Assembly (NCBI GenBank): GCA_965645245.1
Contig: OZ287070.1
Coordinates: forward strand, 1,674,001-1,738,000
Direction: 5' to 3'
Length of the DNA: 64,000 nucleotides
Origin: Massalongia carnosa
Taxonomy: Eukaryota
This document shows positions 7,709 to 14,606 of this stretch, one piece after another. A model generated the notes under the pieces. It was not told the DNA's origin and made no database searches. It was given only the letters and a program-made list of their open reading frames with translations. Positions within the stretch are counted from its first letter, which is position 1, and each line of letters opens with the position of its first letter. The position numbers and the translations under genes are program-made.

Positions 7709-10407
7709 ATTGCTGTCGGCTAATCTGCTCAGGTGCGGAGCGCTCTGCCAAATAACACGCCTAACGCCTGCCAGCTGCTCACAAGCTTCAGATCGTCAGC
7801 ATTTCAGCCGGGCAGCCTAATGGTTTAGCTGATCTTGTACTGGTGCTCTTGCGTTCTAACAGGTTCTATCGTCGTTTTCTCGTTGCTGCGGCTGCTCATC
7901 GGAGTCGAGAAGCAAGATTGGAGGAGACTGTCTCTTCCTACTAAGGCTCGCGACTTCATGTCTTTTTCAGCGGCGAGGCGAGGCTAGGATGGATCATATG
8001 GTCAACATTTCGGCTCCGTTGCACGGTCTGTGTTACTCGGCGAGGGTTGTCGGAACTACGAAATTTTCATTTCTTCTCATGGCGATCGATCTCTAGGCTT
8101 CGATGCAGAACGCTACAAACATCTTCGAGGTCATCCTGATCAACTTTTCCCCCAGCCTGTAAAATAACGCCTATCAACTTCGTCTGTTCGGCTTCGTCTT
8201 CAAACAACGACCCACGAATCCTTAATCGATGGGTATACTCAGATCAAATACTTTGACCCGCCATTCTTTTCCGTAGTTGCCACACCATTTCAGCCATCAG
8301 ATCCTAATCAAACTCAGCCACTACCTTTGTACATTTGTTCGGCATCAAACGGTAGGGTACCATGCATCGCTCTAGAGTCTTCAGTGAGCCGAAATACGAA
8401 AACTCCATAAACAGCACATTGTCGATCTGCGTCTACTAAAGATCACTTACATTTTGTTTCCGCTTGAGTGTATACCGCTTCTACAAGATTGCATTACTGA
8501 AATGTCACGCATGCTGGTCCAAGTCTACAAATCTAGAAGGCTCCGCACCTGTCCTCGTTGTACCACCAATTTATCTTCATTCAGTCTTTCAATTCAAACC
8601 TGCATCAAGCCAGCTTCAGTCTCACACCCAAAGACAATGGAATTTATTGCTCGCAGCCTCCACCTAGTACTCTCCCAATAAAGAGCCTATAAGCTACGCA
8701 TTATTTATTCTCCTAGCGCTTTATCGTTGTCACTCATCCAGGTCAGTTCTAATATTAAAGCCTTATTATTTTGACTTCTCCATTCTAACTGAAGAACTCT
8801 CCGAAAGCGCCTTTCACCTTATGTCGCATTATATTCATGTACATTACGTAGACATTCAATATGGTCCTTTCAGGGCTTTGCCGCCTTTGTACGGCTTCCA
8901 CTCGGCAGAAAAGCCACATGCCCTACAGATAGTTCTCACATGGAATTTGCAACGTGTCTTGCGTCCCGAAATACGATGTTAACATCCCAGGGCGTAGATC
9001 GACCGTACGCGTGGCTTGAGTGTGTACTTATGTGGATTCTAGCATTCCGTCTTTTTATCACCTATGGTCCAAACCCTCCGAACCAGGAGCGAGGCAAGAT
9101 TATCGCCGCATTTCTCATCTCCACATTTCCTAGGAGCTGAAGTTACATGGCAGAATTCTAGATTGTGGTGCTTTCAGCTCAGTTCTTGGCTCCCTTTCAC
9201 CACGTACGGCTCGATGTGATTGGGTTGCTCCACGATAACTTACTCACAAGTATACAATGGTATGCCTTCTACTTTCATGTGCAGTCATCCATCCGCTTTT
9301 AACATTTATGTTATTCAAGATTATGCAAGAACAAGAGATGAACCCACCTCCTCAAAACAAATGGGCATTACTTTGCTTTCTCGACTTTCTAGGAAATCCA
9401 ATCTCGAAAGGTAGGGGCGATAAATGACGGGAAATAACTACTAGGGCAAGGCGTTTGCACCGCGGAGTTTTGTTCGTCATTGGTGGACCTTGAGTCGTCG
9501 ATAGAAAGTATGGATTCTCGAGTTGGTATCGATAACCAAGGAATCATCCAACCTCAATCAAGAAATACAACAATGGAAAGCTTTGAAGCGCGTCTGAAGA
9601 GTCTTCGTCTTAGCATACCCATAAGCCAAGGCAGATAACACCACGTGCCTTTTCCATCAGACTGTTGAACAATCAGAAGTGTGAAGTAGCAACATTCCCG
9701 AGTGTTGCTTTTAGGGGCGGAATCAGAGGAGAATCTTTTTTGGTTGAGGCTGGTTGTACGTCTGTTTACAGTAGGTAGTCTTAGGTACAGAATACAACGG
9801 GTTTATATCACCAAAGAAGCAGCTATTCTGGAGTCTGTAGTCCCGATAAAACCACCGTTTGATGCTAGTAAAGTCGAAATTTCCTATCTTGCAACTTAAA
9901 TCTCTGACAACCTCTAACAGAGTATGTCTCTATTGCTGAGAAATCTTAAATGCGTTACTATGTGTGAACTCCGTACGGCGTGTATTTCTAAAATTACGTT
10001 CACAAAACCACTAGCGTCGATATTAGCGTTATCATTCATCATGACACACCCACATGTGCAATAACCATTACATAGTGTGATAGTATACTCATTCTCGACC
10101 TTGCAAACATACTTCCACCGACAAATACTCTTCCATCAAAAACAATTCCCCTCAAAAAATTGTCGTTACTCGATCCTTTGCCTAGGGATGTGTTGGCTAG
10201 TCTAACGCTTCGCAGCTCTTGTGCAAGCTTTGTCTCCGTAGCTTTATCCTCTCAATACTCATTAAGCCCAGTGAACGCTCCAAAAACCCACAAGAGATAA
10301 CCTCACCCACCCTATTACTCTAAAACTCATTCATACATCCTACCTCCCAATTTCTCGAGGGACGGATCGAATATACACATCGAGAATTAAGACCGATTGC
10401 CTACAAA

Positions 10408-12756
10408 ATGCTTCAACACCCACCAGTAGCCCCACCAGCGGGGCCCAAAATCCCACGATCGGGTCGTCAACCAAACCGTGGTGGGATCCAGAAACGAAAA
10501 GGTGCAGTACGTACGGATAGGGATGGCGATCTGGACATGGAGGAAACTGGAGGAGTCAAAAAGGCTCGTGGACGTGGCCGAGTCGTTCCGCCCCTACGGG
10601 GGAGTTTTGGCGCCGTCTCTACTCGCAACCCAAAGGCTTCACGCCCTGCAAGAGCTAGCTTGAATACTTCGGCAATGCAGAAAGCTATACTGCGTGGCAT
10701 GGGCGCTGACGAGACCATTGCAAGAGGCCCCAGACACACCCCACGAATCACAAGGCAGCCAGGCCGATCTTTGGGCAGGGAACAGGATCTGAGCCAAGGG
10801 AATGGACTGGAACAAGTGATTGTTCGAGGCCTCAAGCAAAGCAAAGCAGCCTCAAATCCGGACGGAGGCATCAGCGATCTTCTTGGATTCCTAGAACGCA
10901 AGGCAACCGTCCCCGACGCAGCTGCGAGGGATGTGGTAAGGATCAAAAAGGTATGTTTGAAACTGTACACTCCTGGTTCCCGGTGGCATCGCGAATTCGC
11001 CCTCTCTGGTCTGCTCTCGTTTCAAGCCAAGCTCTCAGAACGACGACCGAGATTATCGATCCTTGCTACTTCCTTCCACGGGTGACATGCAACTTCAAGG
11101 TTTATATACCTTGCTAACGTTGTGTAGTCACGACTTGATGGTGACGCTCTTATCGTATTCGTTCGAAAAGAGGATGTCATGAAGATATTGAGATTGGACA
11201 AGTTTTTATTTGCCGGAGCGACTTTGCATATCGAGTTCCATCAGGGAAAGGACATTGATCCGCAAGGTGAGGGGGGTGGGGCGACAAACGAAATTTCTAT
11301 GATGTTGAAAGCAGTACTTTCTCGGCGGTATGATCCTGTCACCAAGCTGTTGGACCTGTCAAACCTTGGGTCCGACCCCGAACTGGTCAACATGGGGATG
11401 TTTAGCACAACCGCGAGGGAGTCAAAGTTCTTCCCTGCACTCATGAAAGTCTGTGATAGCAACTTTACAACCGCCCACGAAAAGGCCGAAGCCATCATAA
11501 GTGTTTCTCTAGCTAGCAATGCGCTTACATCCATTGCCTCCGTCACCTCGCTGGCCCAAACTTTACCTGCCATCAAGAATCTAGATCTTTCAAACAACCA
11601 ATTCAGGAATCTCAGCGCACTCGAAGGATGGCGGTGGAAGTTCCGGCACCTCGACCACCTCATTCTCTCTGGGAATCCCCTAGAAACAGAGGAGCCGTCG
11701 TATGAAAATGACATCATCAAATGGTATCCCATTCTTCGCACGTTAAACACCATTCAAGTTCGGACCTTGGACGAAATTAAGGCGGCTACAAGCACCCAAA
11801 TGTCAATTCCAGTACGTGGTCCCAGTTTCCGAGACGAAGCCAATATTGGCGAAACATTTGTCAAACAATTCTTCCCCGCCTACGACTCAGACCGTGTTGG
11901 CCTCGTTAATGGATACTACGATGCGGAATCTATGTTCTCACTAAGTATCAATGTCTCCGCCCCAAGAGGAGCCGAAGCCGTTGACCAGAAAGCACCGTGC
12001 TGGGATGGCTATATAAAACGAAGCCGGAACCTTGTGAAAGTAACGCAAACACCGGCAAGAATGTCGCGTCTGCATACGGGCCCGGAGAGTATTCAGCAAT
12101 GCTGGCTCACCCTTCCCAGCACCCATCACGTCGATCTCCTGAGAGAGCCTCAGAAGTGGTGTATCGAGTGCAATTCCATTCCTGGTCTCCCAGACCCGAC
12201 AGGCCAGTCTCTCGGCGGGGTGGGCGGGCTGATCGTCACTGTTCACGGCGAGTTCTCCGAGGTAGACGTATCCACTGGACAAATGAGGAACAAGCGGAGT
12301 TTTGATCGTACCTTTGTCCTTGGACCTGGTGCTGGAGTTGGAGGCGTCCGGGTCTTGTGCGATACACTTGTGCTCCGAGCGTGGGGCGGTTCCGATGCTT
12401 GGAAACCGGATTTGCCTATTGATAACGGTATCTTATCGTTGACAGCTCCCCCGCAACAACCTTACTCTGTCCAAGTCCCCTTGGGTTTCGGGGCGCCGGT
12501 CCCGGGCAAGACGGAGGAAGATGTACGCAAGGAAATATTGGCCATAGAGCTGAGCAGGCGAACGGGCATGACGTTGGAATATTCGGGTATGTGTCTTCAG
12601 CAGAGTGGATGGAATCTGGACGGGGCTGTAGTTGCATTCGAGCAAGTTAGAGTACGTGTTACATGCAGCTTTTCATGAAATGTTGAGAGCACTTTACTTA
12701 CTAATCTTTCTGTTTAGGGAGCCTTACCAGCTGACGCCTTCTTTGTCGCGACATGA
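10408..12756 (+). CDS. MEX67: mRNA export factor Mex67 (NXF1/TAP orthologue)
   Basis: LRR region (LDLSNN, LILSGNPL), NTF2-like domain (VHGEF..RSFDRTFVLGP) and C-terminal UBA/TAP-C (TGMTLEYSGMCL..GWNL..LPADAF). Exons 10408-10950, 11128-12651, 12718-12756. Confidence 0.92.
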
Positions 12757-14606
12757 GCGCCTACATCTTAGTTGAATTGGAGCAATGATATCAAAAGTAT
12801 GAAGCAAGGATTCCATGAATCTGGCTGGAAATCTGTTAGGGTTGGAAGGGAGGAAGAGGACACATTCAATGGCGGAAGACCAAGGACTTTTCTCGTCTTG
12901 TTATCTCTTACACGTATTCTTCCTTTTCCCATCATGTCTACACGTTTCATTAGCGGGAGCTGAGAGTACATAAAGACAGGCGCCAATCAAACCTAGAAGG
13001 GGTTGAAAGGGGTTTCGGAATCCATTGGCATTTCTGGGGTTCTGCAAGTCTCGTGACCCGGTTGCGGGGGTGGGCTTCTGAATTTTCCTTCCCCATTATG
13101 GGACGGGGAGCGCAAGAAATGGACGAGGATGGGGGGATATTGGAAGTTCGGAGTTGCGATAGGCGGGAGAAAGGGGGAGGGGTTTGATACGCTAGATGAT
13201 GGGATGTTCTGTTTCTAGATAGAACCCGCCTCGGTCCTAGCTTACCGTCTCGAATACAAGGTATGACTTGACATGATTTGACATGGCATGAAATTCTGAG
13301 CGTTTTCGCTTGATTGCTTGATTCCTTGCTGGCTTGCTTGCTTGCTGTGTGCTACGCTATTGCGACCGGGAGGGAATGGTGGATGGGTGATTGAATAAGA
13401 TAGATGGATTTGGAAGAAGGGATGTTTAGATATGTGATTTCTCGGAAATTTCTCGTTTTCGAGTGGTGAAAACTCTTAATGTTTATTTGATTTTTTGTTA
13501 CCTTCCCCCCTCCCCCCCCCCTCTCAAAAAGAAAGTGGGATGAGTGGATGAAGGGATGGAAAGAACAAATATATAAACTCAGGCTAGGCTAGGCTGGATA
13601 TTGATTACGTGGGGAATTTACCCGGAAGGGGGGGACGGGGGTGAGAGAGGCGTGAAGTGCGAAGAATGGATGGGGAGGTTTAGGGATGGGGATGGGGATG
13701 GGGATGATTTGAAGTCTGGCAATGATGATATATGGTTCAATATATATTCTCTCAACCATCTACCTATCACCACCGGAGTGATCAAAGGCCAACACTGAGC
13801 AATGCTATGAGAAACGGTTCTCGAGTTCTTCCATTGACAGCTTTCCTATCTATTCTACGAGAGAATGAGAAGAACCTAGTAGTTTCCAGGAAGAAAGGAC
13901 GAGAGAGAGAGAGAGAGAGAGGAGAAGATAGTAGTAGCGTAGGTGATACATAGGTGGTAGAGAGGGTAGAGAACGGCTGGAGTGAAAGAAGAGGTGGTTT
14001 TGAAGGTCCGGGGGGAGGATTAGTCGGCGGTGGAAAGCTAGGATAAAAGTTTTCATGGAGATTGTGATGTCTAAGTCTGTTTGTGGCGAAGGTAGGCATG
14101 CTATCGATTTTTAAGGTCCTCAATAGAGTAAGGGCGCGAAAGGATGCATTCGGCGTTCTACTGATCAGCCAATCTTTGGCGGTGGCAACAGGACCATGAA
14201 TCCCTAAAACCTTTGAGTAAAAACCATTAGCGGATTGATTCTCAACGAGGATGGGTTATACAAGAACAGGAGAGCGGAGAAGCGTCATTAAAAAATTAGA
14301 GTGTTTATTGTTGCTTTTTTTGTCTCGTCATGGGAGATCGGGGTTAAAAAGGTATAATCATTCGCCTTAAGGGTAAAATGCAAGGAAGAGGGAAGGTGAG
14401 GCTTACGTTCTCGAGAGATAAGCAGGCAAAGCTGCAGGGAAAACATATATCCATGAAGGAGTGAAACATAATTAGTGTGCAGGTAGCTTTCACATATAGA
14501 AGCAAGGTTTTATGCATGGCTTCCATCGTCTGTATTGCTTTCTATTCATTGGTAAAAATCCTAGCCATAGCACGGATTTGTGCAACGAAAATCGCCTACT
14601 CATAAT

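Follow-up and report, generated by a model that had tools for sequence, protein, structure and literature searches.

Mex67/NXF1 is the principal mRNA export receptor. In Saccharomyces cerevisiae, YRA1 is spliced inefficiently by way of a large intron with non-consensus signals. Yeast YRA1, RPL30, and RPS14B are autoregulated via their pre-mRNAs (PMC11585973; here and below, papers given by PMC number are cited for the sections available), and intronic modular elements and Mex67 take part in the fate of the unspliced YRA1 RNA (PMC11585973; Dong et al. 2010). In vertebrates, intron 10 of NXF1 contains a constitutive transport element (CTE), a 53-nucleotide (nt) stem-loop that binds Nxf1 and has a 6+6-nt inner loop; a 94-nt region is conserved in 36 mammals, and also in zebrafish and coelacanth, far beyond usual intron conservation, and the CTE-bearing intron is retained in an alternative mRNA (PMC4338338). 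Fungi, yeast, and invertebrates go unmentioned in the available sections of that paper (PMC4338338); Drosophila sbr also has an intron-containing transcript, whose role is given as unknown (PMC8151460). In the present study, we analyzed a 64,000-nt stretch of DNA from Massalongia carnosa (assembly GCA_965645245.1, contig OZ287070.1, positions 1,674,001 to 1,738,000 of the forward strand; hereafter, the window, numbered from its first letter), which carries a gene for a Mex67/NXF1-type mRNA export factor at 10408-12756 on the plus strand, as identified by Pfam and named homologues. We consider, with slightly better than even confidence, that intron 1 of this mex67 gene (10951-11127) is subject to regulation and carries two conserved RNA modules acting in cis, a core (module A, 10999-11056) and a 3' hairpin (module B, 11080-11131), that control its splicing.

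A metagenome scan with a Mex67 alignment gave 63 loci, 44 of which were inspected at the exon 1/exon 2 junction; the other 19, partial or distant matches with 25-47% identity, were left out. Together with the window, 42 of these loci give 28 distinct introns at one common phase-0 site. All of these introns are 168-206 nt long except two, of 53 nt (L033) and 52 nt (L047), and two further loci (L043 and L044) have no intron at this site. In 10 lineages, intron 1 measures 168-193 nt versus 51-85 nt for intron 2. The best named matches, together with a maximum-likelihood tree from a quick search, served to place the taxa. The window, L001, L004, and L007 belong to Lecanoromycetes, and L015 and L032 fall within the same clade on long branches; L027 belongs to Eurotiales (78-79% identity to Paecilomyces/Rasamsonia and 75% to Aspergillus mexA); and the Dothideomycetes are represented by L034-42 and L045, which group with Cladosporium, and by L023-26, which group with Aureobasidium. 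L010-14, L005/6/9, and L022 were placed in no named class, and the sample contains no Sordariomycetes, Leotiomycetes, or Pezizomycetes loci. The three fungal classes diverged some 300 million years ago. For the older separation of Saccharomycotina from Pezizomycotina, a figure of 590 million years is quoted (PMC8216456).

The core, about 57 nt on the plus strand as delimited by pairwise identity and by a covariance model, R1, is common to Lecanoromycetes, Eurotiales, and Dothideomycetes and is better conserved than the neighbouring codons. In the 10 lineages, mean pairwise identity was 0.62-0.83 over intron nt 51-100, which hold the core, and 0.69-0.96 over intron nt 131-170, compared with values for the flanking exons of 0.38-0.49 at third codon positions and 0.58-0.74 at the first two. 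The average for intron 1 was 0.64 versus 0.27 for intron 2 of the same genes. Model R1, built from 19 sequences, scores 76.9 bits at window 10999-11056, and in 443 kb searched on both strands it gave 35 matches at E <= 2e-9, all in intron 1 with one copy per locus; the sole other match was at chance level (E 0.55). Because all of the matches are seeds or near-duplicates of seeds, this result shows that the core is unique to intron 1, and does not amount to independent discovery. We give next to no credence to an ordinary intron with chance pairings: although the large hairpin proposed earlier for this intron indeed folds no better than shuffled sequences (see below), such an intron is contradicted by conservation above that of coding positions over three classes, by the single copy, and by the unconserved control intron 2.

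Some of the Cladosporium-like loci differ in the state of the core. It is largely decayed in L034 and L036/L045 and intact in L035, L037, and L039-L041, and a short CGACGAC motif is kept; these loci are closely related, with protein branch lengths of about 0.03. Constraint on the core thus appears to be relaxed in part of this group. A second and far more divergent Mex67-like gene (L015-L021 and L032; e.g., L015:2822-4533), with 47% identity to the window, was seen in eight lichen metagenome assemblies, at least some of which also contain a 'normal' Lecanoromycete mex67. Despite its strong protein divergence, its first intron has the top-scoring copy of the core (78.5 bits). This gene could be a paralogue or the gene of a second fungus in the lichens.

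A preliminary description of the window had proposed that intron 1, called oversized, folds into a hairpin of about 110 nt and acts as a fungal counterpart of the CTE. Its coordinates and its length of 177 nt for the intron were borne out by the sequence, and the intron is indeed long against intron 2 of the same gene (66 nt here; 51-85 nt in the 10 lineages), which is the sole comparison. Every listed pairing exists in the sequence, but as a hairpin they fold no better than chance: for the 111-nt piece 10975-11085, z was +0.67 and 150 of 200 shuffles were equally good. Among the observations that the description had named as telling against its own proposal, folding no better than shuffles was found, and lack of conservation clearly was not, since the intron sequence is conserved. 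Covariation among the orthologous first introns gave no clear support to the hairpin either. The whole intron folds with a minimum free energy (MFE) of -46.3 kcal/mol (z -1.76; 10 of 200 shuffles equally good), in a structure that retains the inner stems proposed earlier and loses the outer CCCGGTGG/CCACGGG stem. This outer stem and the ATCG/CGAT stem were rejected as conserved features, and L001, L004, and L007 have no such segment at all. An Rfam scan of 10300-12900 at E <= 10 found nothing in the intron, and a single chance CRISPR-DR match in exon 1. What stands of the proposal is that the intron of this Mex67 gene holds a selected, probably regulatory RNA element, with its length, position, and sequence blocks conserved in three fungal classes; the specifics of the CTE do not stand.

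Part of the proposed hairpin lies in the core, where a possible weak stem is formed by TCTC (11003-06) with GAGA (11049-52), GGTC (11008-11) with GACC (11045-48), and TCGTT (11017-21) with AACGA (11039-43), around a 17-nt loop (11022-38). In this core hairpin 87% of cells pair, and the window core alone gave z -0.73, with 51 of 200 shuffles equally good. Disruptive changes occur in the stems of L004, L005, L017, and L037. Because of these changes, and because covariation is not above shuffles, the core is best seen as a site recognized by its specific sequence, which a weak hairpin may present. Conservation of sequence with neither covariation nor excess stability would also suit a DNA-level element, whether an enhancer inside the intron or an internal promoter driving a transcript that starts in intron 1, as would consensus folding energies that are similar on both strands. 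However, the thermodynamic signal of module B is strand-specific and linked to the splice signals, the consensus structure (predicted on the sense strand) has 56 G-U cells against 12 A-C cells, and a DNA-level element leaves the intron length held near 170-200 nt unexplained. We therefore regard a DNA-level element as improbable. A coding reading of the core was rejected on account of frame shifts and early stops: loop insertions and deletions alter the frame in L010, L023, and L027, and on retention in-frame stops arise at codon 3 in L006, 26 in L027, and 30 in L032. Judged by eye, the alignments contain no conserved internal splice sites of the kind that a poison exon would need.

The regulated-intron reading draws its structural evidence from module B, at the intron's 3' end. 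Here the block GGGTGAC..GCAAC..CAAGG (11080-11100, plus strand; in full, GGGTGACATGCAACTTCAAGG) is complementary to CCTTG-CTAAC-GTTGTGT-AG and the first exon-2 bases TCAC (11109-11131), forming an interrupted hairpin of 18 bp whose 3' strand pairs through CCTTG, GTTGTGT, and G followed by TCAC. The apical helix joins CAAGG (11096-11100) to CCTTG (11109-11113). In the predicted fold, the basal helix takes in the 3' splice site (AG, 11126-11127; G paired, A bulged) and exon 2's first four bases, and the putative branch site CTAAC (11114-11118), which was assigned from the known fungal consensus, is unpaired in an internal loop. The hairpin was predicted by RNAalifold once exon flanks were added, and it is seen also in the 207-nt fold of the window. 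For 11080-11133 of the window, z was -4.12 and none of 200 shuffles was equally good. Elsewhere, z was -3.89 in L007 (0/200), -3.12 in L032 (1/200), -2.80 in L001, -2.79 in L005, -2.30 in L006, -1.76 in L004, -1.56 in L027, -0.94 in L015, and -0.87 in L010. The mean over the 10 lineages was -2.4 versus +0.3 for the intron-2 control, in which 3' ends of equal size gave +0.82, +1.62, +0.79, +1.42, -0.30, -0.29, -0.58, -2.05, +0.92, and +0.60. The hairpin is present in Lecanoromycetes and Eurotiales.

In 11 lineages, 87.9% of the cells of the 3' hairpin pair, as against 19-41% with slid partners. Two lineages have shifted the register: in L007, the 3' strand has changed to GTTACCTAG and pairs with CTGGGTGAC, and in L032 the exon start TCTC pairs with an upstream GAGG; in both, the 3' splice site stays paired. 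The strand that carries no splice signal would be conserved because it must match the signals. For a consensus structure of 13 sequences (group A), 88.5% of cells pair versus 25-45% with slid partners, and three further measures were reached by only 0-3 of 500 shuffles, figures that lean towards the structure since it was derived from the same 13 sequences. Such structures might be no more than a constitutive splicing aid that folds a long intron to present its splice sites, with no regulation. Meyer et al. are said to have reported in 2011 that intron structures affect 3' splice-site use in yeast, and a mere aid would agree with the consensus splice signals and with a relative that appears to splice the intron out. 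However, it explains neither the long intron, since 52-53 nt suffice in L033 and L047 and L043/44 have no intron at this site, nor the conservation of the core as sequence, and a paired 3' splice site should hinder splicing. To such an aid we assign a small probability.

If intron 1 is retained, the window reads through in frame for 44 intron codons to a TGA at 11083-11085, which sits in the 5' strand of the 3' hairpin; the product of 225 amino acids (aa) foreseen in the preliminary description was confirmed from the sequence. As described there, it has no LRR, NTF2-like, or UBA domain, and Pfam places LRR, NTF2-like, and TAP_C in exon 2 only. The retained product has zero Pfam domains and ends within the RRM. 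An in-frame stop is carried by 25 of the 26 long introns, and the exception, L022, has 206 nt and would shift the frame. The CTE-like explanation has Mex67 bind the hairpin, the unspliced mRNA undergo export, and its translation yield a functional short isoform. In its favour are the shared gene family, the conservation of the intronic element, a retained frame that stays open for 44 codons, and the NXT1/p15-like partner of Aspergillus nidulans, with no Mtr2 homologue reported in the available sections (PMC3192866). However, the retained frame is not conserved, as the stops in L006, L027, and L032 show; the hairpin is neither stable nor covarying; and the predicted core loop is weak and asymmetric, 5 nt against 1 nt, instead of the 6+6-nt inner loop of a stem-loop of about 53 nt (PMC4338338). 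The analogy thus fails on the intron concerned, on loop geometry, and on a truncated product that ends within the RRM and has no Pfam domain, where the CTE intron yields a short protein that keeps RNA-binding domains. We hold this explanation to be very improbable.

Another explanation is that the excised intron is processed into a small stable non-coding RNA, small nucleolar RNA (snoRNA)-like or of an unknown class, with the core as its guide or protein-binding part and mex67 as no more than its host. A length held at about 170-200 nt, the single copy, and a core conserved as sequence without covariation, as guide regions are, would all fit, and intron-hosted snoRNAs are common in Pezizomycotina (PMC8216456, PMC5640933). 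With box definitions of RUGAUGA (C), CUGA (D), ANANNA (H), and ACA placed 3 nt from the end (PMC5640933, PMC8216456), inspection by eye of two alignments revealed no conserved C/D boxes and no H plus ACA boxes, and no Rfam family matches the intron at E <= 10. Furthermore, the conserved blocks reach as far as the branch site, 3' splice site, and initial exon bases, an extension that a hosted RNA would not require, and the core is decayed in some lineages. A hosted RNA is thus unlikely, if somewhat less so than the other alternatives.

Under the regulated-intron reading, module A, conserved mainly as sequence, most likely binds a trans-acting factor, possibly Mex67/Nxt itself or another messenger ribonucleoprotein component. 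From the complementarity of the non-signal strand of module B to the stretch between the branch site and the 3' splice site, we infer that folding of module B would hide the 3' splice site and place helices around the branch site. The two modules would jointly set the efficiency of intron-1 removal. Unspliced RNA would reach the premature stop and encode only the disordered N-terminus and about half of the RRM. Because of this stop and of a product that ends within the RRM, lower Mex67 output is likelier than a functional short isoform; retention would lower output via decay or nuclear retention of the unspliced RNA, and would not yield a useful short isoform.

Several observations weigh against this reading. 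Intron 1 may be constitutively spliced: database protein P0002 is contiguous over the junction, so that a relative probably splices the intron out, and the splice signals match the consensus, with no intrinsic weakness of the kind found in YRA1. Many loci come from a single family of lichen metagenome assemblies, and L015-21 and L032 may be paralogues; thus, the lineages are not all independent. R1 finds no core in six long-intron loci (L006, L009, L022, L034, L036, and L045); some of the Cladosporium-like loci and L022 have a decayed core, and L006/L009 one that is rebuilt with an insertion. The core hairpin gave z from -0.98 to +0.66 in the 10 lineages, no better than shuffles, and its covariation was not above shuffles, with five measures reached by 87 to 431 of 500. 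No 3' hairpin was found in five Dothideomycete introns (z +0.92 to -1.12). Where the 3' hairpin is present, its covariation likewise failed to exceed shuffles, 44 of 500 of which reached its count of three pairs with changes on both sides; the near invariance of the two strands accounts for this and leaves covariation with low power in this element. The group-A consensus has seven such pairs, a number reached by 95 of 500 shuffles. The mean z of 20 whole orthologous long introns was only -0.36, and RNAalifold on all 23 introns jointly gave no consensus pairs, because the alignment is too divergent outside the core. Finally, sense and antisense consensus energies are similar, which neither supports nor excludes an antisense reading.

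Without exon flanks, RNAalifold pairs the GGGTGAC block with an upstream GGTCACC; L004, L005, L006, and L027 have this motif, and L032 has part of it. In 5 of the 10 lineages, it contains the same GTCAC as the splice junction (G of the intron end followed by TCAC of exon 2). The two pairings suggest, speculatively, a two-state switch between the 3' hairpin and the GGTCACC/GGGTGAC helix. Going further, we entertain with considerable doubt the possibility of a feedback device in the gene for the chief mRNA-export receptor of filamentous ascomycetes, in which Mex67/Nxt or an adaptor that reports export capacity would bind the invariant core and shift the masking hairpin to or from the GGTCACC/GGGTGAC pairing, thus tuning Mex67 by intron retention. 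The same doubtful proposal would date the device to the ancestor shared by Dothideomycetes, Eurotiomycetes, and Lecanoromycetes, or earlier. The 3' hairpin could make such a switch temperature-sensitive. In the 207-nt fold, the end of exon 1 (10936-10944, GTAAGGATC) pairs with 11057-11065 (GATCCTTGC) over 9 bp and encloses the 5' splice site. By eye, this pairing is not conserved in orthologues, the partner segment being missing in L001, L004, and L007, and it was rejected as a shared feature; it is probably specific to this species.

As for the gene model, all features are on the plus strand. Exon 1 (10408-10950, from the ATG at 10408 in the open reading frame, ORF) has 181 codons for a disordered R/G-rich N-terminus and the first part of the RRM, and its end matches orthologues that end in ...KIKK in the alignment. 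Intron 1, in phase 0 within the RRM-coding region, reads GTATGT...CTAAC...TAG and agrees with a U2-type spliceosomal intron in its GT...AG ends, branch-site consensus, restored frame, and contiguous orthologues. Exon 2 (11128-12651, 508 codons; from Pfam, the ORF, and homologues) encodes the remaining RRM, the LRR, the NTF2-like domain, and most of TAP_C/UBA, and matches PF24048, PF22602, and PF03943 (NXF LRR, NXF NTF2-like, and TAP-C). Intron 2 (12652-12717, 66 nt) served as the within-gene control, and exon 3 (12718-12756) encodes GALPADAFFVAT and the stop. Annotated orthologous proteins are contiguous over the intron-1 junction, with ...KIKK followed directly by SR.EGD..., and Pfam RRM_9 crosses the junction in P0028 (residues 150-216, junction after 180) and in P0002 (residues 119-175, junction after 139). 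P0002, a 657-aa ORF unbroken over the junction on a 2.9-kb Logan contig, is probably the spliced transcript of a relative, judging from its sequence. Among named homologues, the closest (57-64% identity) are the Mex67 proteins of such lichen-forming Lecanoromycetes as Alectoria, Psora, and Trapelia, and the mex67 locus was also found in a lichen metagenome run. None of the sequencing runs listed for the locus was of RNA; contigs from four runs span it together with the intron, show no joints, and look like DNA.

The other loci vary in further details. The Aureobasidium-like L023-L026 (e.g., L023:2830) have the non-consensus donor GTACAC, compared with GTATGT in nearly all others, and have no 3' hairpin. 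Intron 2, near the TAP-C/UBA end, is present in the Lecanoromycete, Eurotiales-like, and L010 loci and absent in the Dothideomycete loci L023, L025, L035-L037, and L041, where the coding sequence continues to the stop. P0094, a 579-aa database protein, starts with an other-frame translation of the 3' half of the conserved intron and continues into exon 2; thus, prokaryote-style gene calls on fungal contigs read through intron 1, and more orthologues carry the element. Window 13490-13525, intergenic and about 750 nt downstream of the mex67 stop, is a long homopolymer-like tract rich in C, with C runs broken by T.

Published surveys and single-gene studies were compared with this element. The screens of Li & Breaker (2017) and of Gao, Jones & Rivas (2021) resemble the present analysis in that they found conserved intronic or untranslated-region elements across Pezizomycotina by comparative genomics. 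The words mex67, mexA, NXF, and 'export' are absent from the main texts of both and from three supplementary files of Li & Breaker, and none of the 15 motif headings in Li & Breaker or of 17 listed structures lies in mex67; the supplement of Gao et al. may list sub-threshold candidates. A full-text literature search, in which subscription-only papers were outside the scope, found no published conserved mex67/mexA intron element in fungi. In A. nidulans, mexA (AN2737) is non-essential, its null strain is affected by temperature, and its partner is the NXT1-like NxtA; the available sections of that paper do not discuss an intron (PMC3192866).

Among the described systems, the vertebrate NXF1 CTE is similar in that there, too, the NXF1/Mex67 gene itself harbours a conserved non-coding element in one of its introns. 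The vertebrate intron, however, lies after the RRM and LRR exons, between those coding for the LRR and the NTF2-like domain, and measures 1.8-4 kb, whereas the fungal intron lies inside the RRM region and is about 0.18 kb long, and the vertebrate short product keeps its RNA-binding domains, which the fungal one would not (PMC4338338). S. cerevisiae YRA1 is similar in that an mRNA-export factor gene is controlled in expression by its own intron, with non-productive unspliced RNA (PMC11585973). An export-factor host with an unusually long intron is found here too (177 nt against 66 nt for intron 2, the only yardstick). There is no sequence relation between the two introns, and the suboptimal splice signals of YRA1 are not seen, GTACAC occurring only in the Aureobasidium-like loci; in mex67, the consensus GTATGT and CTAAC are accompanied instead by a hairpin over the 3' splice site, which could play the role of the weak signals of the YRA1 intron. 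RPL30 and RPS14B have RNA structures that include a splice signal and lower splicing when bound (PMC11585973), and the SUS1 intron contains a structure that modulates how Sus1, an export-linked factor, is expressed (PMC4691836). In contrast to mex67, where the structure covers the 3' splice site and the binder is putative, the structures of these three genes cover the 5' splice site or exon 1 and their binders are known.

The deeply conserved single-copy element in a mex67 intron of three large fungal classes, comprising Aspergillus relatives, plant-associated Dothideomycetes, and lichen fungi, suggests that the same logic as in animal NXF1 intron 10 and yeast YRA1/SUS1 arose in filamentous fungi in a different form. 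The element is short, precisely delimited, and likely to occur in genetically tractable Aspergillus relatives, and the hypothesis is therefore directly testable. The 3' hairpin would offer a clean case of a splice-site-masking hairpin retained over a very long time, and the feedback device, if true, would stand beside the vertebrate NXF1 CTE intron and the yeast YRA1 intron as their convergent counterpart in fungi.

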